In this document: positions 9,207 through 24,030 of the stretch, one piece after another
Numbering within the stretch: the first letter of the stretch is position 1
Layout: every line of letters starts with the position of its first letter
Source of the DNA: Kiritimatiella glycovorans
GTDB lineage: Bacteria; Verrucomicrobiota; Kiritimatiellia; Kiritimatiellales; Kiritimatiellaceae
Direction: 5' to 3'
Length of the DNA stretch: 32,000 bases
Assembly: GCF_001017655.1 (NCBI RefSeq)
Contig: NZ_CP010904.1
Coordinates: forward strand, 480,001 to 512,000
Made by a program: the position numbers and the translations under genes
The notes under the pieces: model-generated
Told to the model about the DNA's origin: nothing
The model's input: the letters and a program-made list of their open reading frames with translations, nothing else
The model's database searches: none

Positions 9207-9287
9207 GGTGTGTGCTCTCCCCGCCCCGTACGGACGCTTTATCAGCCGATGTTTACGCGTTCAGAATATATGACCACGCTTCGGATC

Positions 9288-9310
9288 AAAATAAATATTT
9301 ATTATTATTT
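9288..9310. promoter_or_regulatory. AT-only tract containing a perfect 14-bp palindrome AATAAATATTTATT; candidate regulator site between divergent sulfatase genes
   Basis: 23 consecutive A/T bases in a roughly 65% GC genome. The palindrome is at 9290-9303. It lies in the 252-bp divergent intergenic region 9207-9458. Confidence 0.2.
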
Positions 9311-9458
9311 CGCTTTGACCTGAATTGTGCACGGGAAAGAAGTGAGGACCGCGGATAACACCGGTAGCACGGATAAATGAGGCTTTTCTGCTTGTCGCCA
9401 CGTCGACGCATAATTATCGTCATGTTGCGATCGCAGGGTTTTCCCACAGGAGGCGTGG

Positions 9459-11021: not shown

Positions 11022-11056
11022 GAAAGGGATCCCCCGGCGCAGGCCACACCCACAGC

Positions 11057-11092
11057 GATCCCGATTTCGACTTCGATTCGGATTTCGAGATC
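11057..11092. repeat. Degenerate hexanucleotide tract (GAYTYY-like, 6 units)
   Basis: gatccc gatttc gacttc gattcg gatttc gagatc, located 35 nt downstream of the sulfatase stop. Same unit class as the minus-strand reading (GACTCT)n of the tract at 23962-24030. Confidence 0.6.
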
Positions 11093-11267
11093 CCATCCGT
11101 GCCATTGGTGTAATCCGTGGTCGAAAACACAAGAAAGGTCTCTCGCAAAGGCGCCGGGATCGCAAAGATGAATGAGAAGAGCACGGTCAAATAAATCGTG
11201 CGTTCTTTCTTACGTTCGTAGCAGGCCCGCAGGTCCGCGCAGCGGGTCCAGGGCCGTTATCTTTCAC

Positions 11268-11300
11268 GCGCCTGGCCTGTGCCGGGGGCAGGCCAGGCGC
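11268..11300. other. Perfect 12-bp GC-rich stem-loop (GCGCCTGGCCTG / CAGGCCAGGCGC, 9-nt loop) with no U-tract
   Basis: Arms at 11268-11279 and 11289-11300 are exact reverse complements. It lies in the 386-bp intergenic region and is not followed by a T-run on either strand. Confidence 0.7.
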
Positions 11301-11345
11301 TACTACAAACGTTCGGAAGAAAAACCCTGCCGATCCTGTTCGGAC

Positions 11346-11373
11346 TTGACGAAGCCTTTTTTAGTGTTAATGT
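11346..11373 (+). promoter_or_regulatory. Candidate sigma70-type promoter (TTGACG-16-TGtTAATGT, extended -10) for the pseudopilin-like gene
   Basis: TTGACG at 11346-11351. TG at 11365-11366. TAATGT at 11368-11373. It lies about 35 nt upstream of the GTG start at 11408. Confidence 0.35.
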
Positions 11374-11407
11374 TTCGGTACGTTGAGGCTGGGAGGGCGA
11401 GTTTACA

Positions 11408-12202
11408 GTGAGCATAGTCAGGACGATGAACCGATTTAAAAAATGTCGCGGGTTTACCATGATCGAGCTGCTCGTGGTGGTGGCGATTGTCGGGATTCTG
11501 CTGACGATCCTGACACCCTTCGCGCAGGAGGCGATTTCGGAGGCCCGTTCCCAGCAGTGCAGGGGTAACCTGCGGCGGCTGGGCGAGGCGGTCTTCGCGT
11601 ACCAGATGGATCACAAAGGGTGTTTCCCCCCGCACGTGGAGAGTTGGGATCCTCAGCCCGGCATGACCAAGGGCCTCTGGTATGAATGGCTGTACGATTA
11701 TCTCGAGGTTAAACGCCACGGGCCCTGGCGGGAAGACACGCTTTCGGTGCTGAATTGCCCGGATGCCACGGACCTTAGCGGATGGGGCTGTCCGTCGTAC
11801 GGGGATAATCCCAATCTATTCGTCGGGCGCGCCGCACCGCCGGGTTCGAACGAGCCTGAGGGGCCGGACAGCGGGATCCCGCTGAGGCGGATGGCCGAAG
11901 TGAAGCGCCCGGCGAAGATCATGATGATCGTCGACTGCATGGGGCGGAACCCAGAGACGGGCGAGGCGGACCCCGAATTCGTCGGGTGGGCGTTTCACGC
12001 TAACCAGTTTACCACGACGGATCCGCCTGAATTGACTCGTCATAATGCTGCCCCGCGCCACGGTTCCGGTGAATTGATGGACTGCTGGTTTAATGCGGTC
12101 TTCTGCGACGGGCACGTGGAGAGCATCATTTTCGGCTCGCCCGATATGCAGGATCAAAGCTGGCGCGAGAGCCGCGTCAACCCCTGGTACGAAGGGGACT
12201 GA
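11408..12202 (+). CDS. Prepilin-type N-terminal cleavage/methylation domain protein, DUF1559 (H-X9-DG) family pseudopilin-like
   Basis: The leader ends KKCRG|FTMIELLVVVAIVGILLTIL, the class III signal/methylation motif. The C-terminus is FNAVFCDGHVESI. GTG at 11408 has a GGGAGGG SD 10 nt upstream; an alternative ATG is at 11426. Confidence 0.8.
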   Translation: MSIVRTMNRFKKCRGFTMIELLVVVAIVGILLTILTPFAQEAISEARSQQCRGNLRRLGEAVFAYQMDHKGCFPPHVESWDPQPGMTKGLWYEWLYDYLEVKRHGPWREDTLSVLNCPDATDLSGWGCPSYGDNPNLFVGRAAPPGSNEPEGPDSGIPLRRMAEVKRPAKIMMIVDCMGRNPETGEADPEFVGWAFHANQFTTTDPPELTRHNAAPRHGSGELMDCWFNAVFCDGHVESIIFGSPDMQDQSWRESRVNPWYEGD

Positions 12203-12335: not shown

Positions 12336-14888
12336 ATGAAGCATGTAAACGATCTGGACGGTGTATGGGGGCTGACCTGGACCGAAGGCGGGCGGCCGGC
12401 GAAGGACGCGCAGTGGATCGACGCCGCCGTGCCCGGTGATGTAAATGTTTCGCTCAGCGAAGCCGGTCTTCTGCCGCAGGATCTGTTCTATCGCACCAAC
12501 CTGCGCGAGGCCAAGTGGGTCGAGGATAAGTACTGGTGGTACCGGACGGAATTTGAACTCGAGGCCGCGCCCGGACCTTTCGCCGAGCTGGTTTTTGACG
12601 GGCTGGACCTGTTTGCAACCGTTTTCGTAAACGGAACCGAGGTGGGCAGGGCGGTCAATGCGTTCCGGGCGTTCCGGTTCGATGTGCGCGAAGCCCTGAA
12701 GGTCGGGACGAACGTGCTCGAGGTCTGTTTCGAGCCGACCCGCGGGAAGGTGCAGCAGCTTCACGAGGAATTTCCCGAGTACTGGTCGCTGTTTACTCCG
12801 GGCCGCAGCCTGGTCCGGCACGCACAGTGCCAGTTCGGATGGGACTGGGCCCCTGATGCGCTCGCCCTGGGGATCTGGCGCGGCGTACGGCTGGAGTGTT
12901 CCGACGGGCGGACGATTGAGGACGTCCGGATCGAGGCGGATGATGAGGGCGACTGCTGCGTGCGCGTCGAGGTCCGTCATCTGCGGCCGGATTCCGAGGA
13001 GGAGGCCCCCAGGGGCGTACCCGTGGCGGCGCAGACCGATTATTTCCCTCAGGGCGTACTCGAGGCGGAGCTGCGGGACGGCGACGAGGTGGTCGCGCGC
13101 GAACGCATCGAGGTCTCGGGCGTGAACAATTTTCTCTGCTTCAAGGTCGACGACCCGAAGCTGTGGTGGCCGAACGGCATGGGCGACCCGAACTGCTACA
13201 CCTGTGTGGTGCGTTTCCTGGACGCGGACGGCAAAGAGGAGCAGGACCGCGTCGAGCGCACCTTCGGGTTCCGGTCGGTATCGATCGAAGAGAAGGTCCT
13301 GGAGAAGGACCGCCAGAGCTTTACGTTCCGGGTCAACGGTCATCGCGTCTTTCTGAAAGGCGCGAACTGGGTGCCGGCGCACTGCTTTCCCGGGGTGACC
13401 CGTCCCGACGATTACGCGCGGCTCGTCGCCCGTGCCGAGGAGGCCCACTTCAACACGATTCGCATCTGGGGCGGCGGCATTTACGAAAAGGACGCGTTCT
13501 ATGACGAGTGCGACCGGCGCGGGATCATGGTCTGGCAGGACTTCGCCAACGCCTGTGCGGAAGCGCCGGACGATCACCAGGGCTTCCTCGACAACATCGT
13601 GGCCGAAGCGGAGTACCAGGTCCGGCGGCTGCGCAACCACCCCTCGGTCGTCTGCTGGTGCGGCGGCAACGAGAGTTCAAACGCGCACAATTACGAACCC
13701 GATCGCCCCGGCCGGCGGCTGATGAGCTACTACTACCGGGGCATCGTCGGCGATCTGTCACCGGCCACCCCGTACATCAGTGCTTCGCCGCACTCGAAGT
13801 CCGACCGCGGCCAGGTCCAGACCACCGGCGAGACGCACTGGTCCACGTGGCCGCGTTCGTCGGATGTGACATTCGAGTCCTTCCGCGAGCGGCTCAAGGA
13901 CATCCGCACCGTCTTCAACGGTGAGATCTGTCTGCAGGGGCCTTCGCCCATGGATTCTCAGCTCCGGTTCCTCGCCCCCGAAGACCTGTGGCCGCCGAAC
14001 GACGTCGTCGATTACCACGTCATGTATCATCCCGCCAATCCGGAGACCTACCCGCGTTACGTGACGGCGCAGGTCAGGATGGCGGAGGGGATTATCGGTC
14101 CGTGCATCGATGCCGACAGCTTTACGCGCAAGGCCATGATGGCGCACGCCGAGATGGTGCGCGAGGAACTGGGTTTCTACCGCGCGGTGAAGTGGGCCGG
14201 CAGCGGTGCGCTGCGCTGGATGTTCAACGAGTGCTGGCCGACGTCGAACTGGGCGGACGTCGATTTCTACGGCGCGCTGAAGCCTTCGTATTTCATGTGC
14301 AAGACGATGTTCGATCCGCTCGCCATTACGATCAAGCGCGTCCACGACGAATTGACCGTTCACCTGCTCAACGACACGCTCGAGGATGCCGCGGGCGAGA
14401 TCGAGTTGAGCTGCCGTGACCTGAACGGCAAGGTGCACTGGACGGAGAGCGTGGACGGGTATTCGCCCGCGAACTGCTCGATACAGGTCGCTTCAATCCC
14501 GCCCGGCCGCGTGAAGGGGCCGGATCGTTTTCTCCATGCGCGGTGGAAGACGGACGGCGGGGAGCGCACGGCGATTTTCTTCCCGACGATATTCAGGGAT
14601 GTGCCGTTCGAGGAGCCGGAGTTTGCTTGGACCTCCGATGAGCCGGAACGCGACGGGGACGGATGGCTCACGCGCGTGACCATCGAGGCGAAGAACTACT
14701 GCCGGTTCGTCTATGTCCATCTCCCGGTCGAAGAGTTGCGTGAGGCCGCGATTGAGGATAACTATTTCGATCTCATGGCCGGCGAAAAGCGAACGGTCAC
14801 GGTCCGCTCCGGTGATAAGCTCAAGAGTCTCGACGTGCGCGCCCTCGGCCGTACCGGCGACCAGTTCCCGGCGCAGGGCCCGGAATGA
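12336..14888 (+). CDS. Glycoside hydrolase family 2, beta-mannosidase-like
   Basis: The N-terminus LDGVWGLTW...AAVPGDVNVSLSEAGLLPQDLFYRTNLREAKWVEDKYWWYRTEFEL and the segments IRIWGGGIYEKDAFYDECDRRGIMVWQDF and WCGGNES (acid/base Glu) are typical of GH2 beta-mannosidases. No signal peptide is seen. Confidence 0.75.
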   Translation: MKHVNDLDGVWGLTWTEGGRPAKDAQWIDAAVPGDVNVSLSEAGLLPQDLFYRTNLREAKWVEDKYWWYRTEFELEAAPGPFAELVFDGLDLFATVFVNGTEVGRAVNAFRAFRFDVREALKVGTNVLEVCFEPTRGKVQQLHEEFPEYWSLFTPGRSLVRHAQCQFGWDWAPDALALGIWRGVRLECSDGRTIEDVRIEADDEGDCCVRVEVRHLRPDSEEEAPRGVPVAAQTDYFPQGVLEAELRDGDEVVARERIEVSGVNNFLCFKVDDPKLWWPNGMGDPNCYTCVVRFLDADGKEEQDRVERTFGFRSVSIEEKVLEKDRQSFTFRVNGHRVFLKGANWVPAHCFPGVTRPDDYARLVARAEEAHFNTIRIWGGGIYEKDAFYDECDRRGIMVWQDFANACAEAPDDHQGFLDNIVAEAEYQVRRLRNHPSVVCWCGGNESSNAHNYEPDRPGRRLMSYYYRGIVGDLSPATPYISASPHSKSDRGQVQTTGETHWSTWPRSSDVTFESFRERLKDIRTVFNGEICLQGPSPMDSQLRFLAPEDLWPPNDVVDYHVMYHPANPETYPRYVTAQVRMAEGIIGPCIDADSFTRKAMMAHAEMVREELGFYRAVKWAGSGALRWMFNECWPTSNWADVDFYGALKPSYFMCKTMFDPLAITIKRVHDELTVHLLNDTLEDAAGEIELSCRDLNGKVHWTESVDGYSPANCSIQVASIPPGRVKGPDRFLHARWKTDGGERTAIFFPTIFRDVPFEEPEFAWTSDEPERDGDGWLTRVTIEAKNYCRFVYVHLPVEELREAAIEDNYFDLMAGEKRTVTVRSGDKLKSLDVRALGRTGDQFPAQGPE

Positions 14889-14954: not shown

Positions 14955-16001
14955 TCAGCCTGTTCCGGGCCTCGCCGGCGCCGGCCCGGTGCTGTCGCGT
15001 ACCACCAGTTCCCCGCGCATCCACGGTTCGCGCGGGTATTCATCCGGAGCCGTACCGGTGACCATCTCGTGGACCCAGCGGGCCGCGGCGTAGCCCAGGC
15101 GGCGGTTGGGCATGCGCATAACCGTCAGCGGAGGAGACAGGTACGCCGCCTCCGGGGGATCGTCGAATGTCATCAGCGAGACATCGCGCGGGACCCCCAG
15201 ACCGCAATCATCGAGCGCATGGCGGGCCCCCAGCGCGACCCGTTCGCCCATGACGAACAGCGCCGTCACATCGGGGCGCCGTTTCATCAGCCTGTGGGTC
15301 TCATGATTGCCCAGCTCCAGCCCGTCGCGCCCCCGCCGGGAGGTCACGATCAATTCGGGGTCCTCGGCCAGCCCCGCCTCTTCCAGCGCCCGACGGTAGC
15401 CCTGCAGACGGGCGCGTCCCGTCTGTGAATGGGCGGGCGTGACCAGTGTCGCGATCCTGCGGTGACCGAGCTGGAGCAGATAGCGGACCGCTTCGTAAGC
15501 CGCCTGCGTATGATCGATGCTCAGCAGACGGGTCCCCGTGTTCCGGGGATCGGTGTGGAGGCTGCAGTAGTGAAACGGCACCCGATCAAACTCCTCGTAA
15601 TACCGGCTATGCTCATCGGCGTTGAGAATCACCGCACCGTGGATATTCCGCGATCCGAGCTGGCGGAGCAGCGTGCCGCCGTTCAGTCCGGCCGTCTCGT
15701 CGCTGTACAGCGAGAATCCCAGCCCGGCCTCCCGGAGATACGCCATCATGCCCTCCATCACGGCCACCGTGTACGGAGAAAAACAACTCACTTCCGGCGA
15801 AGGCGTCTGAATCAGGGCACATATATTCGTCGTGCGCGCCGCGGTCGGCCGCGGCCTGAATCCGTACTCATGCGCCTTCCCGCAAATCCGCTGCTTGGTC
15901 TCCGGGCTGATTTCAGGCGAATTGCTCAGCGCCTTGCTCACCGTGGCTACACTTACGCCTAATTCCTCGCTGAGCGTCTTGAGTGTTACTTTGGCTGACA
16001 T
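14955..16001 (-). CDS. LacI/GalR family transcriptional regulator
   Basis: The HTH is VTLKTLSEELGVSVATVSKALSNSPEISPETKQRI, followed by a periplasmic-binding-fold effector domain. ATG at 16001 is preceded by AGGAGGAG at about 9-nt spacing. The ORF extension to 16058 runs into the AT-rich control region and is not used. Confidence 0.85.
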   Translation of the reverse strand: MSAKVTLKTLSEELGVSVATVSKALSNSPEISPETKQRICGKAHEYGFRPRPTAARTTNICALIQTPSPEVSCFSPYTVAVMEGMMAYLREAGLGFSLYSDETAGLNGGTLLRQLGSRNIHGAVILNADEHSRYYEEFDRVPFHYCSLHTDPRNTGTRLLSIDHTQAAYEAVRYLLQLGHRRIATLVTPAHSQTGRARLQGYRRALEEAGLAEDPELIVTSRRGRDGLELGNHETHRLMKRRPDVTALFVMGERVALGARHALDDCGLGVPRDVSLMTFDDPPEAAYLSPPLTVMRMPNRRLGYAAARWVHEMVTGTAPDEYPREPWMRGELVVRDSTGPAPARPGTG

Positions 16002-16020
16002 CTTCCGTACTCCTCCTCTC

Positions 16021-16135
16021 TTTCGAAAAAATAATTTTCGTATATTATAATAGGACATAAATCGAATATAGAGCTAAATATAGGATAAAATAGAATGAGG
16101 TAAGCATATTTTAATATTATATTTTCGTATTTTTG
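16021..16135. promoter_or_regulatory. AT-rich (about 20% GC) divergent control region between lacI-type regulator and SIS operon, with internal repeats
   Basis: 23 G/C in 115 nt. ATTTTCGTAT occurs twice (16034-16043 and 16121-16130), each next to a TATTATA-rich segment in mirrored order. ATAGGA is at 16050 and 16080. The near-palindrome CGAAAA-N5-TTTTCG is at 16024-16040. Confidence 0.4.
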
Positions 16136-16214
16136 CGTTGAGTTGTCTCCGGGCATCGGGCTAGGGTTTTTCCCGGCGGGGCGATCAGGGCCCCGGGAGC
16201 GGGGAGGATGATGG

Positions 16215-16874
16215 ATGGAAGCGGAGATGGAACGTCATTTCGCGCGGTTTCCGGCGTTGAGTTCATGTGCGGAGGAGATCCGTGACGTTTTCCGGAGGCT
16301 GGTAAGGATGTATCGCGGGGGCGGCCGGCTGCTGATTTGCGGGAACGGAGGAAGTGCGGCGGATGCGGCTCACATCGAGGGCGAGTTGATGAAGGACTTC
16401 CGGTTTTCGAGGAGGCTTCCGGAGGGTGACAGGGAAAGGCTTGTGCGGCTTTTCCCGGACGGCGGATCGCGACTGGCGGATCTGCTGACTCCCTGCCTCC
16501 CGGCCCTCGCTTTAGGTACGGGACTTTCTCTGGCCTCGGCGGTCGCGAACGATACGGCGGCGGAGATGGTGTATGCGCAGCAGGTGTACGGGTTATGCGG
16601 CGAACGCGATGCGGTGCTCGGGCTGACGACCTCCGGTTCGTCTCCGAACGTGCTCAATGCATTGAAGGTGGCGCGGCTGCGCGGGGCGGCGGTGTTCGCG
16701 ATCACGGGGCGTGGTGTTTCAGGGATGACGGAGCTCTGCGACGGCTGCATTCATATTCCGGCGACGGAGACGGCGCAGGTGCAGGAGCTGATGGTGCCCG
16801 TGTATCATCTCCTCTGCGGATTGCTGGAGGATGCCTTTTTCGGCGGGAAGGGTGGGTGCGATGCGTTATCGTGA
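16215..16874 (+). CDS. SIS-domain sugar-phosphate isomerase, GmhA/DiaA-like
   Basis: LICGNGGSAADAAHIEGELMK and GLTTSGSSPNVLNALKVARLRGAAVFAITG match the phosphoheptose-isomerase type SIS fold. A GGAGGA SD lies 6 nt upstream. Confidence 0.75.
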   Translation: MEAEMERHFARFPALSSCAEEIRDVFRRLVRMYRGGGRLLICGNGGSAADAAHIEGELMKDFRFSRRLPEGDRERLVRLFPDGGSRLADLLTPCLPALALGTGLSLASAVANDTAAEMVYAQQVYGLCGERDAVLGLTTSGSSPNVLNALKVARLRGAAVFAITGRGVSGMTELCDGCIHIPATETAQVQELMVPVYHLLCGLLEDAFFGGKGGCDALS

Positions 16875-17997
16875 GCGCTTCGTGGCCGCTCTGCGGCGGC
16901 AGCCGGTCGACCGCGCCCCGTTCGACCTCGCCGGGACCGTCCTGACCTCGGCGTGCGAAACGGTGGAACGGAGGCTGCTGGACGTGCTCGGATTTTCCGC
17001 GCCGCCGCAGCGGGAAGAAAATGCTTTTTTCGACGAACGTCTGCTGCGTCATTTCGACATCGATTTCCGCAGGGTCGGAGCGACGCTTTTCCCCGAAAGC
17101 GACCTTGCGCGGCGGATATCGGACACGGAACGCGTGAACTGCTGGGGCATCCGGCAGCGGTATACGGGGCGGTACTGGGAGATCGCGGAATCCCCGCTCC
17201 GGGGCGCGTCCGCAGAGGATCTGGACGACTATCCGTGGCCGGACCCGGGGCGGATCGACCCCTCGCGGATCGAACATTTCCGTCTGGAGGCGAAGCGTCT
17301 GCACGAGGAAACGCCTTATGTCGTATGTGCGACCCACCCGGTGCTGGGCGTATTCGAGCTGGGGTGCTGGATGTGCGGGTTCGACGATTTTCTGTTGAAG
17401 ATGGCGATCGACCGCGATTTCGTGAGGAAATTCTTCGACCGTGTTCTCGCCTATCAGAAGGAGGTTATCGAGATCTACTACGGGGCGCTCGGCGATTTTA
17501 TCGACGTCACCACCAGCGGCGATGATTTCGGGACGCAGCACGGTTTGTTCGTTTCGCCTGAGCTGTTCGCGGACATGATCGCACCCTGTTACCGCGAGCG
17601 CATCGCGTTCACGCGACGATTCACCGGCGCGCGTTTTTTTCATCACACCTGCGGTTCGGTTTATCCCGTGATCCCGGCCCTTATCGACGCCGGGGTGGAG
17701 ATCCTCAATCCGGTCCAGCCCGGCGCCCGGGACATGGAACCGGAGCGGCTTCGGGCCGCGTTCGGAGAACGTCTCAGCTTCTGGGGCGGCATCGATACCC
17801 AGTCGCTGCTTCGTGAAGGTTCGGCGGAGGACGTTCGTGCCGGCGTGGAGGGGGTGCTGGAGGCGATGCGTGCGGAGTCGGGCGGGTATGTGCTCGCCGC
17901 GGCTCACGAGATCCAGGACGACGTGCCTGCGGAGAACGTGGTGGCGATGTTCGAGGCGGCCCGGGGGTACTTCGACCGGAAGAGGTGCAGGGCATGA
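16861..17997 (+). CDS. URO-D (uroporphyrinogen decarboxylase / MtaA-type methyltransferase) fold protein, paralogue 1, function unknown
   Basis: N-terminus RERFVAALRRQPVDRAPF. Mid-protein SGDDFGTQHGLFVSPELF. FFHHTCG has an H-x-C dyad (His 17644-17646, Cys 17650-17652). The start at 16861 overlaps the SIS stop by 14 nt. The ATG at 16831 has no usable SD spacing. Confidence 0.65.
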   Translation: MRYRERFVAALRRQPVDRAPFDLAGTVLTSACETVERRLLDVLGFSAPPQREENAFFDERLLRHFDIDFRRVGATLFPESDLARRISDTERVNCWGIRQRYTGRYWEIAESPLRGASAEDLDDYPWPDPGRIDPSRIEHFRLEAKRLHEETPYVVCATHPVLGVFELGCWMCGFDDFLLKMAIDRDFVRKFFDRVLAYQKEVIEIYYGALGDFIDVTTSGDDFGTQHGLFVSPELFADMIAPCYRERIAFTRRFTGARFFHHTCGSVYPVIPALIDAGVEILNPVQPGARDMEPERLRAAFGERLSFWGGIDTQSLLREGSAEDVRAGVEGVLEAMRAESGGYVLAAAHEIQDDVPAENVVAMFEAARGYFDRKRCRA

Positions 17998-19016
17998 ACT
18001 CACGCGAACGAATGATCCGCGCCTTCGAGTACACCCGGCCGGATCGTATCCCCGTGGTCTATCACCCCTCCCCGGCGGGACTCTACGTCCATGGTCGCAA
18101 GCTGCTCGACCTATTCAACCGCTACCCGCCGGACAACCCGGTGGATTTCAGTTCGATCCACGGGCCGGATCCGGAGACGCTGAAGGGGGGCGAGTACGAC
18201 GAGATCAAAGAGGACGAGTGGGGGGTAGTGACGCGTCATCGCGTGTTCGGGATCGCCGGCCAGGTGCTCCGCCACCCGCTCGCCGACTATGCCGCGCTCG
18301 AGCACTACGTCATGCCTGAGCCCCCCGCCCTCGACTCGCCGGAGGCCCGGGCGGAGCGAAATGAGATCGAACGGCTGCGCGAAGATTATCTCGTCTTCCG
18401 CGGCGGCCTTTTTCTCTTTCACATGCTGCTCCAGCTCCGTCCGATGGATGACGTGCTGGTGGAACTCTATACGGAGGACGAACGTCTGATGCGACTGCTC
18501 GACCGGCTGACGGAGAACATGCGCGGGCGCATGGAATATATGCTGTACTGCGGGGCCGATGTCGTGATGTTCGTCGATGACTGGGGGTTTCAGGAGACGC
18601 CGATCATTTCTCCGGAACGGTTCCGCCGGATCTATCGCCCGCGTTATGAAAGGCTTTTCAGGCGTATCCACGAAGCGGGGCGGAAGGTCTTCTTCCATTC
18701 CTGCGGATTTCTCGGCCCGATCTTCGATGAACTGGCGGATATGGGGATCGACGGCATCTGGCATCAGGCGAACCGTGTGGACACGCGGGCGTTTGCCCTG
18801 AAGTGTCGCGAGCACGGTATCACCGCCTATCTGCACCCGGATCGTCAGCATCTGATGCCGTTCGGCTCGCCGGACGAAATTCGCGCCGCGGTACGGACGT
18901 ACGCCGATATTTATCACGAGCTGGGCGGGGGCGGGATTTTCTACGTCGAGATTGAAAACGACGCCCCGTGGGAAAATGTGAAAGCGCTGGTGGAGGCGAT
19001 CGATGAGTATCGTTGA
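17994..19016 (+). CDS. URO-D fold protein, paralogue 2, function unknown
   Basis: N-terminus RERMIRAFEYTRPDRIPV. Mid-protein FVDDWGFQETPIISPERF. FFHSCG has an H-x-C dyad (His 18696-18698, Cys 18702-18704). ATGA start/stop overlap with paralogue 1 at 17994-17997. Confidence 0.6.
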   Translation: MNSRERMIRAFEYTRPDRIPVVYHPSPAGLYVHGRKLLDLFNRYPPDNPVDFSSIHGPDPETLKGGEYDEIKEDEWGVVTRHRVFGIAGQVLRHPLADYAALEHYVMPEPPALDSPEARAERNEIERLREDYLVFRGGLFLFHMLLQLRPMDDVLVELYTEDERLMRLLDRLTENMRGRMEYMLYCGADVVMFVDDWGFQETPIISPERFRRIYRPRYERLFRRIHEAGRKVFFHSCGFLGPIFDELADMGIDGIWHQANRVDTRAFALKCREHGITAYLHPDRQHLMPFGSPDEIRAAVRTYADIYHELGGGGIFYVEIENDAPWENVKALVEAIDEYR

Positions 19017-19043
19017 GCGGGAAGCAGGAGGGAGGGAACGGAT

Positions 19044-20042
19044 ATGGCCCGGCTGACTTCCGCAGTGTTTACCGGAGAAGAGCCCGGGATGTCGCTGCTG
19101 CGCCCGTTCGGTGAACGGCGGATCCGGGCGGCGTTTCACGATATCGACGGCACCCATTCGCTGATCCGTGCATGGGAGCCGGTGATGAGCGCCGTGCTTT
19201 CCCGTGTGATCCGTGAGGGCCTTCCCGACGCGCCGGACGAGGCGGAGCGCATGATGGCGGGCTGCATGGACGCCCTGCGCACGGCGGAGACGGACCGGTT
19301 CTGCGTGGAATCGGCGGGGCTCTCCGCGCTGACGCAGATGGAATGGGCGCTGCGGCGCGCGTTCCAGGAGGGCGTGGCGGGCGAGGCGGGCTGGGACGAT
19401 GAAGCCAACGCGGAAATCGTGCGGCGCATCTGGGCGGGCGAGGAAGAGTATGGCGAGCTGGAGTGCCGCGAGGACCGGCGCGCCTGTATAGCCCGGCAGG
19501 CCCCGGCCCTGTTCCGGCTGTACGAGCGCGTGCTCTACAGAGCCTGCCGGGACGGAAACCTGGCGGAGGCCAGACGGGACCCCCGGCGTTACCTTGTTCC
19601 GGGAAGTCTTCGCTTCCTGAGCCGGCTCCGTGAAGCGGGGGTCCGGAATTATTTCGTGACCGGCTCGATCGTGCGGCATGACGAGTCCGGCCGGCCGGCC
19701 GGCGGGATCTATGAAGAGGCCGTAACCCTGGGCCTGTCCGTAGGGCCGGGCGGACTCGTGGAGGACCTCTACGGCTCGAGGTGGGACGAGAAGAAGCCGA
19801 AACCGGGCGTGATGAGCGAGCTGGCGCAACGACTGGACATTCCGGGCGAAGAACTCCTGGTCGTCGGCGACGGGCGGAGCGAAATCGCCGCCGGCGTGGA
19901 GATGGGGGCCCTGTGCATCAGCCGGCTCCCGCCCGAAGCCCGCCGCCAGCGAGAGATCCATTCCGGAATCGGGACGCATCTCATCGTGGAGGATTTCAAT
20001 CGCAATGCACTGATGAATATGATCAGGGAGGAGCAAAGGTGA
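19044..20042 (+). CDS. HAD-superfamily hydrolase/phosphomutase-like protein with a large cap insertion
   Basis: Motif I is FHDIDGTHS (DxDGT). The distal motif is LLVVGDGRSEIAAGVEMGA. A GGAGGGAGGGA SD lies 6 nt upstream of the ATG at 19044; an alternative ATG is at 19089. Confidence 0.45.
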   Translation: MARLTSAVFTGEEPGMSLLRPFGERRIRAAFHDIDGTHSLIRAWEPVMSAVLSRVIREGLPDAPDEAERMMAGCMDALRTAETDRFCVESAGLSALTQMEWALRRAFQEGVAGEAGWDDEANAEIVRRIWAGEEEYGELECREDRRACIARQAPALFRLYERVLYRACRDGNLAEARRDPRRYLVPGSLRFLSRLREAGVRNYFVTGSIVRHDESGRPAGGIYEEAVTLGLSVGPGGLVEDLYGSRWDEKKPKPGVMSELAQRLDIPGEELLVVGDGRSEIAAGVEMGALCISRLPPEARRQREIHSGIGTHLIVEDFNRNALMNMIREEQR

Positions 20043-20962
20043 CGAGACTACTGAATAAATATGAGGGGAATCCCGTTGTGAGCCCGGCCGACGTTCCGGG
20101 CGGCGGGGCGATGCAGGTGTTCAATCCCGGTGCGATCAAACTGAACGGAGAGTACCTGCTGCTGATGGATGTGGCCGACCTTTCCGCGTGCTATCACTTC
20201 CGGCTGGCGCGCAGCCGCGACGGCTATGCGTTCACCGTGGATGACCAGCCGGTCGACTGGCCCCCCTCCGATCCCGATTTCGAGGAGCAGAACCGGTATG
20301 ATCCGAGGATCACGAAGATCGGCGACAGCTGGTATATCATGTTTGCCGCGCGGAACGATCGGCTGGGCGTGCGCACGGGTCTCGTTTCGACCCGGGATTT
20401 CGTGCACTTCGAGCGACACCCGAACTGCAGCGAACTGAACAACCGCAACGGCGTACTCTTTCCCGAGAAAATCGGAGGCCTCTACGCCCGGCTCGACCGT
20501 CCCATGGGGAATCCGCACGTCGACCCTGCGAATATCTGGATCAGCTATTCACCGGACCTCGTGTTCTGGGGAAGAACGAAACCCGTGCTCCAGGTACGCC
20601 CCGGGGAATTCTGGGATGCCCAGAAAGTGGGCGCCGGTGCCGTGCCGATCCGTACACCGCAAGGCTGGCTGGAGATCTATCACGGGGTGGAGAAGACCTG
20701 TAACGGCTTTATCTATCGCCTCGGGGTCTGCCTGCTCGACCTCGAGGACCCCTCGAAGGTGATCGCACGCGGACGAAACTGCGTGCTGTGGCCGGAACAT
20801 GGCTACGAGGACGTCGGCCGTTCGGGTACGACGGTGTTTACCTGCAACGCGCTGCTGGAGGAGGACGGGGAGACCGTGAAGATCTACTACGGCGCGGCCG
20901 ACCGCTGCATCGGCCTGGCCGAAGGGAAACTGTCCGATCTGCTTGCAGCCTGTTACACATGA
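20039..20962 (+). CDS. Glycoside hydrolase family 130 (beta-mannoside phosphorylase/hydrolase family)
   Basis: VFNPGAIKLNGEYLLLMDV, YDPRITKIGDSWYIMFAARN, NGVLFPEKIGGLYARLDRP, GWLEIYHGV, YRLGVCLLDLEDPSKVIARG and KIYYGAADRCIGLA are GH130 (DUF377) hallmarks. The GTG start at 20039 has a GGGAGGAG SD and a GTGA overlap with the HAD stop. The ORF-track extension back to 19781 lies inside the HAD gene. Confidence 0.8.
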   Translation: MTRLLNKYEGNPVVSPADVPGGGAMQVFNPGAIKLNGEYLLLMDVADLSACYHFRLARSRDGYAFTVDDQPVDWPPSDPDFEEQNRYDPRITKIGDSWYIMFAARNDRLGVRTGLVSTRDFVHFERHPNCSELNNRNGVLFPEKIGGLYARLDRPMGNPHVDPANIWISYSPDLVFWGRTKPVLQVRPGEFWDAQKVGAGAVPIRTPQGWLEIYHGVEKTCNGFIYRLGVCLLDLEDPSKVIARGRNCVLWPEHGYEDVGRSGTTVFTCNALLEEDGETVKIYYGAADRCIGLAEGKLSDLLAACYT

Positions 20963-20999
20963 CCGGACGCGGATGTGCTGAAAACAAGGAGACGCCGTC

Positions 21000-22535
21000 A
21001 TGACCCTCGGAGCACCTCGCAGAGATCTGTTAAAAGCCGCCCTGTGTTCAGCCGCGCTTGTGAGCGTGGGGGCCTGGGCCCAATCCGCACCGCGCATGAA
21101 CGTGGTGATCATCACCACCGACGACAACGACGCGGCTTCGCTGGGCTGTTTCGGCAATCCGCTGGAGGGGGTGACGCCGCACATGGATCGGCTCGCGGCG
21201 AAGGGGGCGCGTTTCGAACACGCGCATACCACCTCGCCGACCTGCCAGCCGAGCCGGCTGTCGCTCATGACCGGGCGATACCCGCAGACGAACGGCAACA
21301 CAGGCCACGCCGACCCGCTCAAACCGGGAGTCACCACCCTCGCCGCGGAATTGAAAAAGGCCGGATACTTCACCGCCCTGGTCGGGAAGGAAGGGAACTA
21401 CGTTCCGGCAGAGGCCTTTGACTGGGACCGGCACCGTCTGAGCGCCGACCAATGGGAGCCGGATGACGGATACTGGGGCATGTGGCGTTCGCCCGAGGGA
21501 TTCTATCGGGGCACGAAAGAACTTATCGCCGAGGCGAAGAAGGCGGAGAAGCCGTTTTTCCTGCACCTGAACACCAGCGATCCACACCGTCCCTGGCCCG
21601 GCCACGTCACCGAAGTCGAACACCTTCGCAGGATGGAGTCGCGTTCGGGGCTCGAGCTTGATCCGCTGCGTCCCTGCCCGCGACAGTATTCGCCGCTCGA
21701 GGTCCCCGTGCCGGGTTATCTGCCCGATCTGCCCGGGGTGCGGGTCGATCTGGCGGACTACTACGAGTGTCTGCATCGCGCCGACCTGGCCGTGGGACGG
21801 ATGCTCCAGGCGATCGAAGAAGCAGGGGCGCGGCGCCACACGATCGTGATCTGTTTCGGCGATCAGGGGATGGCGCTGCCCACGTCAAAACAGAACATCT
21901 ATCCCTACAGCACACGCATTCCGCTGCTGATCGACTGGCCGGGCGTGACGAAGCCGGGGACGGTCGTCGGGGACACCATGGTGTCCGTGATCGATCTCAT
22001 GCCCACACTGCTGGACGGACTGGGACTGCCGCCGGTGGAGGGACTGGACGGGAAGAGCGTGCTGCCGGTGCTCAAAGGAGATCCGCAGGCGGGACGTTCC
22101 CGGGTCTTCACCTCGTACAATTACGCGCTCCCCGGAATACAGGTCTTTCCGATGCGCGCCGTGCAGACACGCGAGTTCATCTACATCTATAACGCCTGGC
22201 CGGGACGGGAGAATGCGCAGGGACAGCCGCTGCGCTACAACGGAAATTACGACGCGCTCAAGCCGATGGCCTGGCCGTCGATGCTCGAGGCCGCGAAGAC
22301 CGATCCGGAGGTTGCAGAGCGCGTCCGGTTCATCGCCCGCCGCGCCCCCGAGGAGTTCTACGACCTGCGCAGCGACCCGGATTGTCTGCACAACCGTATC
22401 GATGATCCCGAACACCGGGAGAAGATCGAGACCCTGCGCCGTCTCCTCATGCGGCAGATGGAGGAGACCGGGGATCCGCTGCTGAAAGTCTGGAAAGAGG
22501 ACGCACCTCTGCCTTCGGCGTGGATGAACCGGTAG
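21000..22535 (+). CDS. Cys-type (formylglycine) sulfatase with a Tat-like signal
   Basis: Signature TCQPSRLSLMTGRYP (C-x-P-x-R). N-terminus GAPRRDLLKAALCSAALVSVGAWA. An AAGGAG SD lies 8 nt upstream. Only 37 nt separate it from the GH130 stop, so it is probably in the same operon. Confidence 0.85.
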   Translation: MTLGAPRRDLLKAALCSAALVSVGAWAQSAPRMNVVIITTDDNDAASLGCFGNPLEGVTPHMDRLAAKGARFEHAHTTSPTCQPSRLSLMTGRYPQTNGNTGHADPLKPGVTTLAAELKKAGYFTALVGKEGNYVPAEAFDWDRHRLSADQWEPDDGYWGMWRSPEGFYRGTKELIAEAKKAEKPFFLHLNTSDPHRPWPGHVTEVEHLRRMESRSGLELDPLRPCPRQYSPLEVPVPGYLPDLPGVRVDLADYYECLHRADLAVGRMLQAIEEAGARRHTIVICFGDQGMALPTSKQNIYPYSTRIPLLIDWPGVTKPGTVVGDTMVSVIDLMPTLLDGLGLPPVEGLDGKSVLPVLKGDPQAGRSRVFTSYNYALPGIQVFPMRAVQTREFIYIYNAWPGRENAQGQPLRYNGNYDALKPMAWPSMLEAAKTDPEVAERVRFIARRAPEEFYDLRSDPDCLHNRIDDPEHREKIETLRRLLMRQMEETGDPLLKVWKEDAPLPSAWMNR

Positions 22536-22675: not shown

Positions 22676-23839
22676 CTACGTCGATGCGTATTCCTTGATC
22701 AGCGCCCCGCCGATGATGTCGCGCTGGATCTGGTTGGTGCCCTCGTAGATCTGGAGGATCTTGGCGTCGCGCATCATCTTCTCGACCGGGTATTCGCGCA
22801 TGAAGCCGTAACCGCCGAGCATCTGGACACAGTCGGTCGTGATGTCCATGCAGACGTCCGTGGCATAGACCTTGCACATGGCGGAGAGTTTGGAGACGTT
22901 TTTCGCACCGCTGTCGATCGTGCGCGAGACCGAATAGACCAGCGCGCGGGCCGCCTCGATCCGGGTGGCCATATCCGCCGCCATCCACTGCAGGCCCTGA
23001 TTGGCGATCACGGGCTTTCCGAACTGGTGGCGCTCGCGCGTGTACTTCATCGCCTCGTCGAGCGCGCCCTGGGCCAGGCCGACGCCCTGGATGGCGATGC
23101 CGGGGCGGGAGATGTCAAAGGTCTTCATCGCCAGCAGGAAACCCGAGCCTTCGCGTCCGATCAGGTTTTCGGCGGGGACCTCGCAGTCCTCGAAGATCAG
23201 TTCGCGGGTGGCCGAGGCGCGAATGCCCAGCTTGTTTTCCTTCTTGCCGAAGGTGAATCCCGGGGTGTCCTTTTCGACGACGAAACAGGATACGCCGCGG
23301 GGCCCCTTGCTGCGGTCGGTGACGGCGAAGACCGTGTAGATATCCGCTTCGCCGCCGTTGGTGATCCACTGCTTGGTGCCGTTCAGGACGTATTTGTCGC
23401 CTTTCTTCTCCGCGGTGGTGGCGATGGCGCTGACATCGCTTCCCGCGTTGGGTTCGGTCAGGCCGAACGCGGCGAGTTTCTCGCCGGAGGCGAGCGGCGG
23501 GAGGAATTTTTTCTTCTGCTCATCCGAAGCCCCGATAAGGATCGGGTCGGCGCCGAGGCCGTTGGCGGCGAAAGAGACGGAAACGCCGATGCAGGCACGG
23601 CTGAGTTCCTCGATCGCGAGGATGAAGTTGAGCCCCGGTCCGCCGAACCCGCCGTACTCTTCGGGAATGTAGAGCCCCATCATGTCCATCTGCGCCAGTT
23701 CTTTGAGCAGCTCCGTCGGAAACGCTTCCTTCTCGTCGAGTTCGGCGCGCACGGGAACCACGCGCTCCTCGGCGAACTCGCGCATGATCGATCGGATCTC
23801 CTGCTGTTCTTCGGTCAAACCGTAATCCACTTCCGCCAT
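22676..23839 (-). CDS. Acyl-CoA dehydrogenase (short/medium-chain, butyryl-CoA dehydrogenase-like)
   Basis: MAEVDYGLTEEQQEIRSIMREFAEERVVPVRAELDEKEAFPTELLKELAQMDMMGLYIPEEYGG, followed by the ACAD middle and C-terminal domains (QWITNGGEADIYTVFA, YEGTNQIQRDIIG). An AAGGAG SD lies upstream. Confidence 0.85.
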   Translation of the reverse strand: MAEVDYGLTEEQQEIRSIMREFAEERVVPVRAELDEKEAFPTELLKELAQMDMMGLYIPEEYGGFGGPGLNFILAIEELSRACIGVSVSFAANGLGADPILIGASDEQKKKFLPPLASGEKLAAFGLTEPNAGSDVSAIATTAEKKGDKYVLNGTKQWITNGGEADIYTVFAVTDRSKGPRGVSCFVVEKDTPGFTFGKKENKLGIRASATRELIFEDCEVPAENLIGREGSGFLLAMKTFDISRPGIAIQGVGLAQGALDEAMKYTRERHQFGKPVIANQGLQWMAADMATRIEAARALVYSVSRTIDSGAKNVSKLSAMCKVYATDVCMDITTDCVQMLGGYGFMREYPVEKMMRDAKILQIYEGTNQIQRDIIGGALIKEYAST

Positions 23840-23961
23840 GTCCGTCTCCTTTACCCGGTCGATACGCCGGCAAAATGATGGTTAAGAAGGGGCGAGTGAA
23901 TCAGGTTCAGCGCGGAAATGCAAGACACGGAGGGGCGGGGAGGGAATCGGGGAGAGGCAGG

Positions 23962-24030
23962 GTCAGAGTCAGAGTTGGAGTCAGAGTCAGAGTCAGAGTC
24001 AGAGTCGGAGTCGGAGTCAGAGTCAGAGTA
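23962..24030. repeat. Hexanucleotide microsatellite (GTCAGA)n, 11 units (8 perfect; variants GTTGGA and GTCGGA x2)
   Basis: Read directly from the sequence at 23962-24027, plus a partial unit. It lies 123 nt upstream of the ACAD start codon and directly abuts the left inverted repeat of the IS element. Confidence 0.9.

Follow-up and report, generated by a model that had tools for sequence, protein, structure and literature searches.

A LacI-linked Kiritimatiella glycovorans operon that may route beta-1,4-mannosides to fructose-6-phosphate through a HAD enzyme and a GmhA-like SIS enzyme

Introduction

Can a HAD-superfamily protein and a GmhA-like SIS protein, encoded beside a GH130 phosphorylase, carry alpha-mannose-1-phosphate (Man1P) to fructose-6-phosphate (Fru6P)? 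This question is raised by a locus in the anaerobe Kiritimatiella glycovorans (GCF_001017655.1, NZ_CP010904.1), which we analyzed within the 32,000-nt stretch covering positions 480,001 to 512,000 of the forward strand (the window, whose own numbering is used below). D-mannose is one of just four substrates that support growth of the organism. We see an about even chance that the locus is a LacI-controlled catabolic operon for beta-1,4-mannosides, probably sulfated ones, that relies on a HAD mutase and an SIS isomerase. What we observed directly are the structure of the genes, their families, the conservation of catalytic residues, and the conserved neighborhoods; from these we infer the activities, substrates, and regulation discussed here.

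Results

Six tightly packed plus-strand genes, encoding an SIS protein, two URO-D-fold proteins (URO-D1 and URO-D2), a HAD protein, a GH130 protein, and a sulfatase, lie divergent from a LacI gene. The minimal or negative spacing described in the original prediction was reproduced from the open reading frame coordinates, with all six genes in their expected positions: SIS and URO-D1 overlap by 14 nt (16861 versus 16874), URO-D1 and URO-D2 share a 4-nt ATGA overlap, HAD and GH130 share a 4-nt GTGA overlap, and 37 nt separate GH130 from the sulfatase gene. The gap between URO-D2 and HAD is 27 nt. A GGAGG-like sequence lies 5' of every start in the operon, the URO-D1 start is backed by the MxYRERF N termini of its homologues, and the GH130 length (307 aa) compares with 306 aa in an 80%-identical orthologue. 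None of the operon genes encodes a transporter.

The LacI-family regulator gene (14955 to 16058, minus strand) was identified by Pfam LacI and Peripla_BP_3 matches, and its NCBIfam family matches all fall under equivalog cutoffs. Since the first 19 codons sit in AT-rich DNA, the true start is probably M20, at position 16001. The divergent control region (16020 to 16140) is as AT rich as had been claimed, with a GC content of 21% in 80-nt windows (16040 to 16119) versus ~63% for the whole window. The motif ATTTTCGTAT(A/T)TT is present twice in this region (16034 to 16046 and 16121 to 16133), together with several A/T inverted repeats, and these repeats may act as operators. A single sigma-70-like match (16023 to 16051, plus strand) is not above shuffled expectation, and Rfam gave no match at the control region.

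The GH130 gene (20039 to 20962, plus strand; Pfam GH130, 1.6e-53) encodes a protein of the beta-1,4 "Y/R" type without a signal peptide (by inspection). Its best PDB match is TM1225 (1.5e-68), with Lin0857, UhgbMP, and RaMP2 also matched, whereas BT3780-type hydrolases are matched at merely ~1e-10. Alignment to characterized enzymes revealed that Y87, D88, R136, N137, R154, H215, and D288 are kept, which marks the protein as a predicted phosphorylase by all of the published residue criteria. These results bear out the earlier phosphorylase reading, which grouping with the hydrolases or loss of the phosphate-binding residues would have contradicted. Of the two motifs proposed to contribute to the phosphate site, YHG held up, but ARNDRLGVR (aa 104 to 112) aligns with a nonconserved loop of UhgbMP and TM1225 and was ruled out.

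The window GH130 has Asp44 in place of the conserved, normally invariant +1-subsite Arg (R59 in UhgbMP). Since 117 of its 120 closest homologues also have Asp at the R59 position, the enzyme belongs, on sequence grounds, to a large subfamily with this substitution. Table 2 of Li et al. 2020 (PMC7660257) gives R/D at R59 for a single meta-node, UC3, to which the window enzyme may belong; within UC3, enzyme U3 carries the Y/R pair and made beta-1,4-mannobiose and -triose from alpha-Man1P (PMC7660257). Homologues of the window GH130's subfamily are flanked by LacI genes at two loci (L173 and L174) and by sulfatases at two others (L171 and L006), and those in Opitutaceae, Cohnella, and another Kiritimatiellales genome have no HAD or SIS neighbors. 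GH127 genes also recur as neighbors, which hints that something other than a simple mannan may be the natural substrate.

The final gene of the operon (21000 to 22535, plus strand; Pfam Sulfatase and SGSH_C) encodes a 511-aa, S1_8-like, Cys-type S1 sulfatase whose formylglycine motif, C82-Q-P-S-R, was read directly. Its best PDB matches are human SGSH (4mhx, 2e-40) and the S1_8A lambda-carrageenan sulfatase (9bb9, 2e-35). Given a twin-arginine-like signal (RRDLLK ... AWA-QS), the sulfatase is probably exported and would thus reside in a different compartment from the other five operon proteins. In support of the idea that the co-operonic sulfatase points to a sulfated substrate, the link of the GH130 subfamily with sulfatases recurs in another Kiritimatiellales genome.

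Upstream of the LacI gene and convergent with it, the predicted GH2 beta-mannosidase-like gene (12336 to 14888, plus strand; Pfam GH2 and mannosidase Ig domains) proved to encode a genuine beta-mannosidase relative, with PDB matches to 5n6u (8e-109), 6byc, and BtMan2A and no signal peptide by inspection. Further upstream, two S1 sulfatase genes (7746 to 9206, minus strand, and 9459 to 11021, plus strand; both from the open reading frame list) precede a gene for a DUF1559/prepilin-type protein (11408 to 12202, plus strand; DUF1559 Pfam match). DUF1559 genes also come after homologues of the window GH130's subfamily at L173 and L174. The genes at 7746 to 12202 are probably associated with the operon and may belong to the same regulon.

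Pfam annotation identified no ManA- or ManB-type gene within the window, and a literature search found no activity published for proteins of the HAD, SIS, or URO-D families. The HAD gene (19044 to 20042, plus strand; Pfam Hydrolase) encodes a 332-aa protein with an enlarged C1-type cap, which we propose to be an alpha-Man1P/mannose-6-phosphate (Man6P) mutase. Its motifs (D33-I-D35-G-T, T206, K253, and G-D276-G-R-S-E280) are invariant in a family with >1,100 matches at ~50% identity and members in at least 238 species. The SIS gene (16215 to 16874, plus strand; Pfam SIS_2) encodes a 219-aa GmhA-like protein, the proposed Man6P/Fru6P isomerase, which keeps the Zn/catalytic residues H53, E57, Q190, and H198 and the phosphate loop TTSGSS. 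Its best GmhA match in the PDB is 2xbl (6e-32), yet it scores 114 to 116 bits against GmhA models with cutoffs of 209 to 276 and carries a ~25-aa insertion (aa 66 to 93). SIS proteins of the same type also occur with GH38 alpha-mannosidase and ROK kinases.

Since the SIS protein is most similar to GmhA and has every catalytic residue, the two proteins could be a GmhA/GmhB-type pair for D-glycero-D-manno-heptose phosphate metabolism, whose position next to GH130 would reflect heptoside turnover or have nothing to do with GH130. Only one PDB sequence matches the HAD protein significantly, and it is indeed a heptose-1,7-bisphosphate phosphatase (E 0.0015), but the match covers motifs III to IV alone of a 199-aa GmhB chain, whereas the window protein has a ~150-aa C1 cap. 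Given that the SIS protein reaches only about half the GmhA equivalog cutoff and has a family-specific insertion, that no HldE-type kinase/adenylyltransferase is encoded in the operon, that the neighbors are mannosidases and mannoside phosphorylases, and that Clostridia make up most hosts of the HAD family, a heptose pathway is highly improbable.

The mutase and isomerase readings can be set against the neighborhoods of the HAD gene, which we surveyed in 75 species loci. In 47 loci the HAD gene adjoined a GH130 phosphorylase gene, a GmhA-like SIS gene, or both, and in the other 28 neither was nearby; a GH130 phosphorylase lay no more than two genes away in 33/75 loci, and an insertion-bearing GmhA-like SIS gene was found beside HAD in 20/75. 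All 48 directly adjacent genes were codirectional with HAD, and most overlapped it or lay <15 nt apart. This HAD/SIS/GH130 adjacency is kept across several phyla and at least four GH130 subtypes, one partner GH130 matching the Bacteroides fragilis 4-O-beta-mannosyl-glucose phosphorylase at 7.5e-151, and the D/R/R/H/D residues are kept in all partner GH130s. Since the partners are of at least four types, their common feature would be the product, alpha-Man1P. These patterns support a functional tie of the HAD and GmhA-like SIS proteins to GH130 phosphorylases, and conserved adjacency is what a Man1P-to-Man6P-to-Fru6P route predicts. In contrast, the six genes do not keep their exact order elsewhere: the nearest relative has the order HAD-GH130-(SIS remnant)-URO-D-sulfatase, and because the remnant is just 75 residues long, SIS is dispensable there.

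While conserved adjacency thus strengthens the mutase and isomerase readings of the original prediction, the HAD fold and motifs are equally compatible with a phosphatase, and the nearest structures include both activities. The AlphaFold2 model (pLDDT 92.5) retrieved only distant subfamily-I HADs with Foldseek (TMq ≤0.48), among them Rv3400, AlnB, the MtlD phosphatase domain, and beta-phosphoglucomutase (beta-PGM). The HAD protein might therefore be a sugar-phosphate phosphatase acting on Man1P, Man6P, or a phosphorylated aglycone, with SIS isomerizing another sugar phosphate and the phosphate ester not being conserved into glycolysis. Most characterized C1-cap subfamily-I HADs are phosphatases, the Foldseek neighbors also include a pyrophosphatase and YniC, and the weak NCBIfam matches point to phosphatases, GmhB and phosphoglycolate phosphatase among them. 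However, the top structural match, Rv3400, is a beta-PGM, and entries labeled as beta-PGM follow at lower ranks. Hydrolysis of Man1P would also undo the benefit of phosphorolysis and leave a cotranscribed aldose/ketose phosphate isomerase without a purpose, whereas GH130-HAD-SIS triads show both conservation and translational coupling. We consider a phosphatase rather unlikely.

The same enzymes could also run from Fru6P through Man6P to Man1P, followed by GH130 reverse phosphorolysis or GDP-mannose synthesis, and so supply a beta-mannoside reserve or solute or mannose for glycans. GH130 reactions are reversible and certain GH130 enzymes use GDP-mannose, but such use is reported to be absent in beta-1,4 GH130 enzymes. 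Numerous loci in Clostridia consist of a compact HAD-SIS or SIS-GH130-HAD unit that lacks transporter and endo-mannanase genes in its vicinity, and in Fimenecus-type loci HAD-SIS pairs without GH130 lie near GT2 genes. Around the window genes, however, LacI, beta-mannosidase, and exported sulfatases form a catabolic signature, and elsewhere the module is accompanied by AraC or LacI regulators. A biosynthetic direction is thus distinctly unlikely, and we retain the catabolic mutase-isomerase reading.

The original prediction left the URO-D-fold genes unexplained. URO-D1 (16861 to 17997, plus strand; 378 aa; Pfam PF01208) is an MtaA/URO-D-fold TIM barrel from a family with >1,200 matches at 50 to 63% identity, in which H262-x-C264, H349, SGDDFG, and CWMCGFD are invariant. 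Its scores against MtaA/CmuA models are 37 to 51 bits versus cutoffs of 235 to 400, and its AlphaFold2 model (pLDDT 93) best matches MtaA (4ay7) and then UroD (TM ~0.65). Its paralogue URO-D2 (17994 to 19016, plus strand; 340 aa; Pfam match; 28% identity) retains DDWG and FH-S-CG and deviates at the third metal-ligand position (Glu region); URO-D2-like genes adjoin URO-D1 homologues in 9/51 loci. The neighbors of URO-D1 homologues include GH2, GH38, GH29, ROK, SIS, and HAD genes; the GH2 and GH38 genes encode mannosidases, and GH2 of the beta-mannosidase type recurs. By alignment and context, the pair thus belongs to an uncharacterized, mannosidase-linked family of MtaA-like proteins that carry an HxC zinc motif.

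O-demethylases of anaerobes use two MtaA-like methyltransferases, and the URO-D pair could likewise be a corrinoid-dependent O-demethylase of the methyltransferase I/II type that demethylates mannose residues before GH130 or GH2 acts; the MtaA likeness, the retained HxC motif, and the link to mannosidases fit this idea. Nevertheless, the window lacks genes for corrinoid- or B12-binding proteins, these are also absent from the 25 Pfam families seen most often in 125 neighbors of URO-D1 homologues, no cobalamin riboswitch was found, and the third zinc ligand is His or Glu rather than the Cys of MtaA. We thus judge demethylation to be improbable; the URO-D proteins are probably accessory enzymes that depend on zinc and have mannose or a modified mannoside as their substrate.

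Discussion

In the route that we favor, the exported S1 sulfatase would remove sulfate outside the cytoplasm, and in the cytoplasm the GH130 phosphorylase would split the imported oligosaccharide to yield alpha-Man1P, with the GH2 beta-mannosidase yielding free mannose in parallel. The HAD enzyme would then convert Man1P to Man6P as a phosphoaspartyl mutase working through a bisphosphate intermediate, as in beta-PGM, and the SIS enzyme would convert Man6P to Fru6P with GmhA's zinc and acid/base chemistry. If this is true, HAD and SIS replace the ManB-type phosphomannomutase and the ManA-type phosphomannose isomerase.

The window GH130 has the fold, catalytic Asp, phosphate-binding Arg and His, and Tyr/Arg pair of beta-1,4 specificity of the beta-1,4-mannoside phosphorylases UhgbMP, RaMP2, TM1225, and UC3/U3, and like them lacks a signal peptide; it differs by its Asp at R59 and by a modest identity to the solved enzymes. 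The URO-D pair shares the PF01208 TIM barrel with uroporphyrinogen decarboxylase and the MtaA/CmuA methylcobamide:CoM methyltransferases, and URO-D1 has MtaA as its best structural match and keeps the His-x-Cys zinc motif. Both proteins, however, fall far under the MtaA/CmuA family cutoffs, stand in a glycan degradation context without a corrinoid partner, and have His (URO-D1) or a Glu region (URO-D2) where MtaA has its third zinc ligand, Cys.

GmhA, the sedoheptulose-7-phosphate isomerase, converts a ketose phosphate to a manno-configured aldose phosphate. The window SIS shares its fold, His-Glu-Gln-His set, and Ser/Thr phosphate loop but lies under all GmhA equivalog cutoffs, has the 10- to 28-aa insertion after the FxFxR segment that is common to all HAD-linked SIS proteins, and neighbors mannoside enzymes rather than heptose/LPS genes. 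Beta-PGM, itself a HAD enzyme, partners inverting phosphorylases of alpha-glucosides, for example maltose phosphorylase or trehalose phosphorylase. The window HAD is similarly a phosphoaspartyl enzyme adjoining an inverting phosphorylase, with the DxD motif, a subfamily-I C1 cap, and a proposed C1-to-C6 phosphate move; its cap is ~2 times the size, the similarity is at the superfamily level only, and its putative mutase role would be on alpha-Man1P. The eukaryotic phosphomannomutase PMM2 is also a HAD-superfamily phosphoaspartyl enzyme, but its cap is of the C2 type.

The experimentally dissected mannan locus (MULL) of Roseburia intestinalis encodes LacI, GH130_1, GH130_2, the Man1P/Man6P mutase RiPgm, and the phosphomannose isomerase RiGH1_D2 (PMC6385246). 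Both loci are LacI regulated and send GH130 products to Fru6P by a coencoded mutase and isomerase, as predicted from genes in our case. In contrast to MULL, the window lacks genes for an ABC transporter, an epimerase, an esterase, and an endo-mannanase. Its extra genes encode two URO-D-fold proteins and an exported sulfatase, and the ManB and ManA positions are taken by a C1-cap HAD protein and a GmhA-like SIS protein.

A compact operon lies opposite a LacI-type regulator gene

The published chromosome of Kiritimatiella glycovorans L21-Fru-AB comprises 2,949,723 bp with a GC content of 63.3%, and the species uses only glucose, GlcNAc, mannose, and xylose for growth (PMC5148204). On the plus strand of the window, we read six consecutive open reading frames encoding SIS (16215-16874), URO-D1 (16861-17997), URO-D2 (17994-19016), HAD (19044-20042), GH130 (20039-20962), and sulfatase (21000-22535) proteins. 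The SIS and URO-D1 genes overlap by 14 nt, URO-D1 and URO-D2 share an ATGA overlap, a 27-nt gap precedes HAD, HAD and GH130 share a GTGA overlap, and a 37-nt gap precedes the sulfatase gene; the tight packing described in the original prediction is thus real. A Shine-Dalgarno-like sequence precedes all six starts, and the chosen starts agree with the N termini of homologues.

The divergent LacI gene, whose translation probably starts at M20 (position 16001), encodes a protein with the N-terminal helix-turn-helix domain (PF00356) and effector domain (PF13377/PF00532) of LacI-family repressors. Given this start, the control region spans 213 nt, and its core (16040-16119) has a GC content of 21%, in keeping with the AT-rich intergenic region noted originally. 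Candidate elements within it are several A/T palindromes and a sequence, ATTTTCGTAT(A/T)TT, that occurs twice. When a shared operator motif was sought in this region, a two-copy 13-mer alone was recovered, with a count that was matched in a few shuffles, and an Rfam search of the region returned no family match. Profile searches of each protein, which had been proposed as a check, upheld the family labels in Pfam and NCBIfam, as did PDB sequence searches. The GH2 gene near the LacI gene also proved to encode a true relative of beta-mannosidases (8e-109 to PDB 5n6u).

Two repeats were observed elsewhere in the window. A 41-nt tandem repeat (3011-3246; 5.8 copies, 90% matches), in which every unit carries the hairpin GGGACGGGG...CCCGTCCC, sits between a GH127-like gene and a glycyl radical enzyme gene and is overlapped by an open reading frame without a Pfam match (3034-3912). 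The second, a 12.8-copy (AGAGTC) repeat (23953-24029), lies just ahead of a 592-amino-acid open reading frame (24182-25960) that by eye resembles an IS4/IS1634-type transposase; both are downstream of a convergent acyl-CoA dehydrogenase gene (22676-23839).

The GH130 protein carries phosphorylase residues and an unusual Asp

The window GH130 protein contains the family's propeller domain (PF04041, 1.6e-53, amino acids 24 to 305) and matches PDB TM1225 at 1.5e-68. GH130 phosphorylases are defined by a catalytic Asp (D104 in UhgbMP, the reference for residue numbering) and phosphate-binding Arg168 and His231, plus R150 and N151 (PMC7660257). Since D88 (the proton donor), R154 and H215 (phosphate binding), and R136 and N137 align to these UhgbMP residues, the protein is predicted to be of the phosphorylase type by the criteria of that study. 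The original prediction was therefore correct in considering the phosphate-site residues retained and the enzyme phosphorylase-like, but the stretch that it took for the site, ARNDRLGVR, aligns to a variable loop instead. Likeness to hydrolases was weak (the BT3780 model, with its cut-off at 550 bits, scored 52), whereas phosphorylases matched strongly. By inspection, the N terminus, MTRLLNKYEGNP, lacks a signal peptide.

With respect to linkage specificity, the protein has the Tyr/Arg pair characteristic of beta-1,4 enzymes. The +1 subsite set of the beta-1,4-specific GH130_1 and GH130_2 types consists of Arg59, Tyr103, Arg150, and Asp304 in UhgbMP; Tyr87, Arg136, and Asp288 are kept in the window protein, but Asp44 replaces Arg59, leaving the set incomplete. 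This substitution is unusual, as the equivalent Arg is kept in nearly all GH130 groups. The 120 nearest homologues (55 to 80% identity) belong to Verrucomicrobiota, Kiritimatiellales, Phycisphaerae, Paenibacillaceae, and Ruminococcaceae, and 117 of them likewise have Asp here. Either Arg or Asp at this position has been tabulated for meta-node UC3 only, and U3, a characterized UC3 member with the Tyr/Arg pair, uses alpha-mannose-1-phosphate (Man1P) to synthesize beta-1,4-mannobiose and -triose (PMC7660257). The window protein is a candidate UC3 member.

HAD and SIS neighbours were absent from Asp-type GH130 relatives elsewhere. One Kiritimatiellales Asp-type gene is flanked by three sulfatase genes and an MFS transporter gene, and this linkage to sulfatases in the Kiritimatiellales suggests that the natural substrates are sulfated mannosides. 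Examples from the Opitutaceae adjoin LacI and DUF1559 genes. In two Verrucomicrobiota-like loci, a DUF1559/prepilin-type (N_methyl) gene (L173, 10163-10816; L174, 11037-11681) lies near the Asp-type GH130 gene, and such a gene in the window (11408-12202) sits between a sulfatase gene and the GH2 gene. GH127 genes also recur near GH130 or HAD genes, namely the GH127-like gene of the window (18-2510) and those of loci L004 (5109-6947) and L172 (10673-12637), with the order GH127-GH130-HAD in L004 and GH130-esterase-GH127 in Cohnella; this recurrence hints that the natural substrate may be more complex than plain mannan.

The operon sulfatase (PF00884, 4.8e-41) has C82-Q-P-S-R as the formylglycine motif (C/S-x-P-x-R) of S1 sulfatases. 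It is probably exported, since a twin-arginine-type signal, RRDLLK...AWA/QS, can be read directly in its sequence, in contrast to the other five operon proteins and the GH2 protein. Its best solved relatives in a PDB search were human sulfamidase (SGSH; 2e-40) and S1_8A of a lambda-carrageenan pathway (2e-35). It is a candidate member of the S1_8 subfamily (SGSH and S1_8A/B/C).

HAD and SIS genes are linked to phosphorylases predicted to share a product

The HAD protein belongs to a family of ~320-amino-acid proteins (~50% identity, >1,100 database matches) found in at least 238 species when one genome per species was scanned. The hosts are mostly Clostridia (Acutalibacteraceae and Oscillospiraceae) but also include Kiritimatiellales, Lentisphaeria, Planctomycetota, Armatimonadota, and Gemmatimonadales. 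Motifs I to IV (DxDGT, Thr/Ser, Lys, and GDxxxD/E), a Rossmannoid core, and a cap after motif I place the protein in HAD subfamily I (C1 cap). D33-I-D35-G-T, T206, K253, and D276...E280 were invariant in 25 sequences; the family motifs accordingly read HD-I-D-GT, T206, K253, and GDGRSE, and the cap motif AGLSALTQME was likewise invariant.

We analyzed the neighbourhoods of 75 HAD loci, counting as partners genes within two genes of HAD. GH130 was a partner in 33 loci and a GmhA-like SIS in 20; one or the other was near HAD in 47 of the 75, and neither was nearby in the remaining 28. All 48 directly adjacent partners were on the same strand as HAD, and most overlapped it or lay <15 nt away. The phosphorylase residues were kept in every GH130 partner, even though the partners represent at least four types: GH130_1-like enzymes (7.5e-151 to the Bacteroides fragilis 4-O-beta-mannosyl-glucose phosphorylase), GH130_2-like enzymes, an Ile type resembling meta-node UC6, and the Asp type found in the window. 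Given that alpha-mannose-1-phosphate is the one product that these types share, HAD, together with SIS, is likely to act downstream of Man1P, which we consider the strongest argument for their role.

In the nearest relatives of the operon (L006/L007), the arrangement is HAD-GH130-(75-residue SIS remnant)-URO-D-sulfatase. The gene content is conserved, but the integrity of SIS and the gene order, which the original prediction had proposed to compare among related genomes, are not. The remnant (9931-10179), which lies between GH130 and URO-D, corresponds to ~75 to 82 residues of the SIS N terminus. The Clostridia HAD/GH130/SIS genes are flanked mainly by unrelated genes and AraC regulators, and mannanase, transporter, ManA, and ManB families were absent from the frequent Pfam families flanking such loci, which implies simply that, as a rule, the module stands alone as a compact unit.

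Linkage to Man1P-producing phosphorylases lends indirect support to a role for HAD as a hexose-1-phosphate/hexose-6-phosphate mutase that would work via a bisphosphate. The competing assignment is a phosphatase, and structural comparison accommodates both. A PDB sequence search gave marginal matches only, for HAD as for the two URO-D proteins, and Foldseek searches with the HAD AlphaFold2 model (pLDDT, 92.5) found no close solved relative: all matches were subfamily I HADs with a TMq of ≤0.48, and they included beta-PGM; Rv3400, which we take to be a mutase; and the phosphatases AlnB, MtlD, and YniC. Structure thus did not separate mutase from phosphatase. HAD had no Pfam or NCBIfam match to the PGM_PMM, PMM, or PgmB models, which represent the characterized mutase families (ManB alpha-D-phosphohexomutase, PMM2, and PgmB), and its likeness to beta-PGM is structural and at the superfamily level only.

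For SIS, H53, E57, Q190, H198, and the TTSGSS motif align to Burkholderia pseudomallei GmhA, a resemblance that raises the alternative that SIS and HAD form a heptose GmhA/GmhB pair. SIS scored 114 to 116 bits against GmhA equivalog cut-offs of 209 to 276, and it carries a 25-amino-acid insertion. The HAD-linked SIS proteins have in common an insertion that GmhA lacks, and they retain the zinc/catalytic His-Glu-Gln-His residues and the phosphate loop while scoring half of the GmhA cut-offs. Their neighbours in 20 loci were HAD and GH130, and no heptose or lipopolysaccharide genes (HldE, GmhB, or WaaC/F) were found in the window. On both context and architecture, we rejected the heptose pair. 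SIS proteins of this type were also seen alongside a GH38 alpha-mannosidase and ROK kinases, a setting in which a mannose-6-phosphate (Man6P) isomerase would be expected.

HAD-SIS pairs without an adjacent GH130 gene were observed in seven loci (L031, L046, L062, L067, L069, L079, and L087) from "Candidatus Fimenecus" and related bacteria, as part of a conserved block that also includes lipase-like, beta-lactamase-like, and GT2 genes. In such blocks, the pair may have a noncatabolic role as well. A further alternative is that the same chemistry is run biosynthetically.

The URO-D proteins belong to a mannosidase-linked family

Both URO-D proteins match the TIM-barrel family PF01208 (URO-D1, 4.8e-21; URO-D2, 7e-19). 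The URO-D1 family has >1,200 matches at 50 to 63% identity, with invariant H262-x-C264, H349, SGDDFGTQ, and CWMCGFD; URO-D2 is a paralogue of URO-D1 (28% identity) that keeps DDWG and H-x-C. When the URO-D1 AlphaFold2 model, which was of good quality, was searched with Foldseek, the best match was MtaA (4ay7, 1.2e-14), followed by UroD and MetE, and no close solved relative was found. Of the MtaA zinc site (His-x-Cys...Cys), His-x-Cys is conserved in both proteins; at the position of the third ligand, URO-D1 has His349, and URO-D2 shows a gap or Glu. Against MtaA, MtbA, and HemE cut-offs of 235 to 600 bits, the two proteins scored 26 to 55 bits.

The likeness to MtaA suggests a corrinoid-dependent demethylase as one explanation, which we tested by looking for its expected partners. 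No corrinoid- or B12-binding family was among the frequent Pfam families of 125 neighbours of URO-D1 homologues, and no cobalamin riboswitch was found in the window; the methyltransferase I/II O-demethylase reading is therefore without support. Across 51 loci with URO-D1 homologues, the recurrent neighbours were URO-D paralogues, GH2 beta-mannosidase-like, GH38, and GH29 proteins, ROK and PfkB kinases, the same SIS type, and a short HAD paralogue. The URO-D1 family is clearly connected with the metabolism of mannose or mannosides. More speculatively, and with a low probability in our view, the pair could represent a corrinoid-independent, zinc-dependent MtaA/URO-D branch that processes mannose or modified mannosides, for example, by de-etherification or isomerization. 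If so, this branch would add a new class of enzymes to glycan catabolism, and the MtaA-like, mannosidase-linked family offers a concrete target for enzyme discovery.

Two further arrangements involve these genes. A PFL-like glycyl radical enzyme gene (4208-6598, minus strand) and an AraC gene (6690-7538, plus strand) lie 8 kb upstream of the operon beside two sulfatase genes; in an Anaerolineae locus (L089), a glycyl radical enzyme gene is directly followed by a URO-D1 homologue, and the two genes are present in L125 as well. Two Clostridia loci (L090, 8001-14881, and L102) have the order SBP-permease-permease-GH38-PLP enzyme-URO-D1 homologue-short HAD-unknown 333-amino-acid protein-PfkB-ROK-GmhA-like SIS-ROK regulator. 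The short HAD paralogue of the L090 cluster has ~275 amino acids and 26% identity, and the three unusual families occur together there without GH130.

Discussion

Taken together, we put at roughly even the chances that this operon, under LacI control, serves the catabolism of beta-1,4-mannosides, which may be sulfated, with each activity predicted from homology and context. The exported sulfatase would remove sulfate outside the cell, GH130 would carry out phosphorolysis in the cytoplasm alongside hydrolysis by the GH2 beta-mannosidase, HAD would convert Man1P to Man6P, and SIS would convert Man6P to fructose-6-phosphate.

GH130 phosphorylases are central to the use of mannan and N-glycans by gut and marine bacteria, and their product is assumed to enter glycolysis via the usual mutase, ManB, and isomerase, ManA. 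The ~320-amino-acid large-cap HAD and the insertion-bearing SIS may be a widespread nonorthologous replacement for ManB and ManA that drains alpha-mannose-1-phosphate, and this replacement may span Clostridia, Kiritimatiellota, Planctomycetota, Armatimonadota, and others. If HAD and SIS do that job, two large unannotated families would gain a function, with HAD alone in the genomes of at least 238 species, and many Clostridia and PVC bacteria that seemingly lack a mannose route would need their metabolic reconstructions corrected. These points should interest chiefly specialists in glycan metabolism and enzyme discovery.

Literature searches uncovered no account of an SIS-GH130-HAD module, nor of glycan loci that contain URO-D genes. 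We view the operon as a GH130 mannoside locus whose downstream enzymes would be nonorthologous and which also includes a mannosidase-linked URO-D family. It follows the same logic as the experimentally dissected mannan locus of Roseburia, which comprises LacI, GH130 enzymes, a Man1P/Man6P mutase, and a phosphomannose isomerase, although in K. glycovorans unrelated folds would take the place of these two downstream enzymes.
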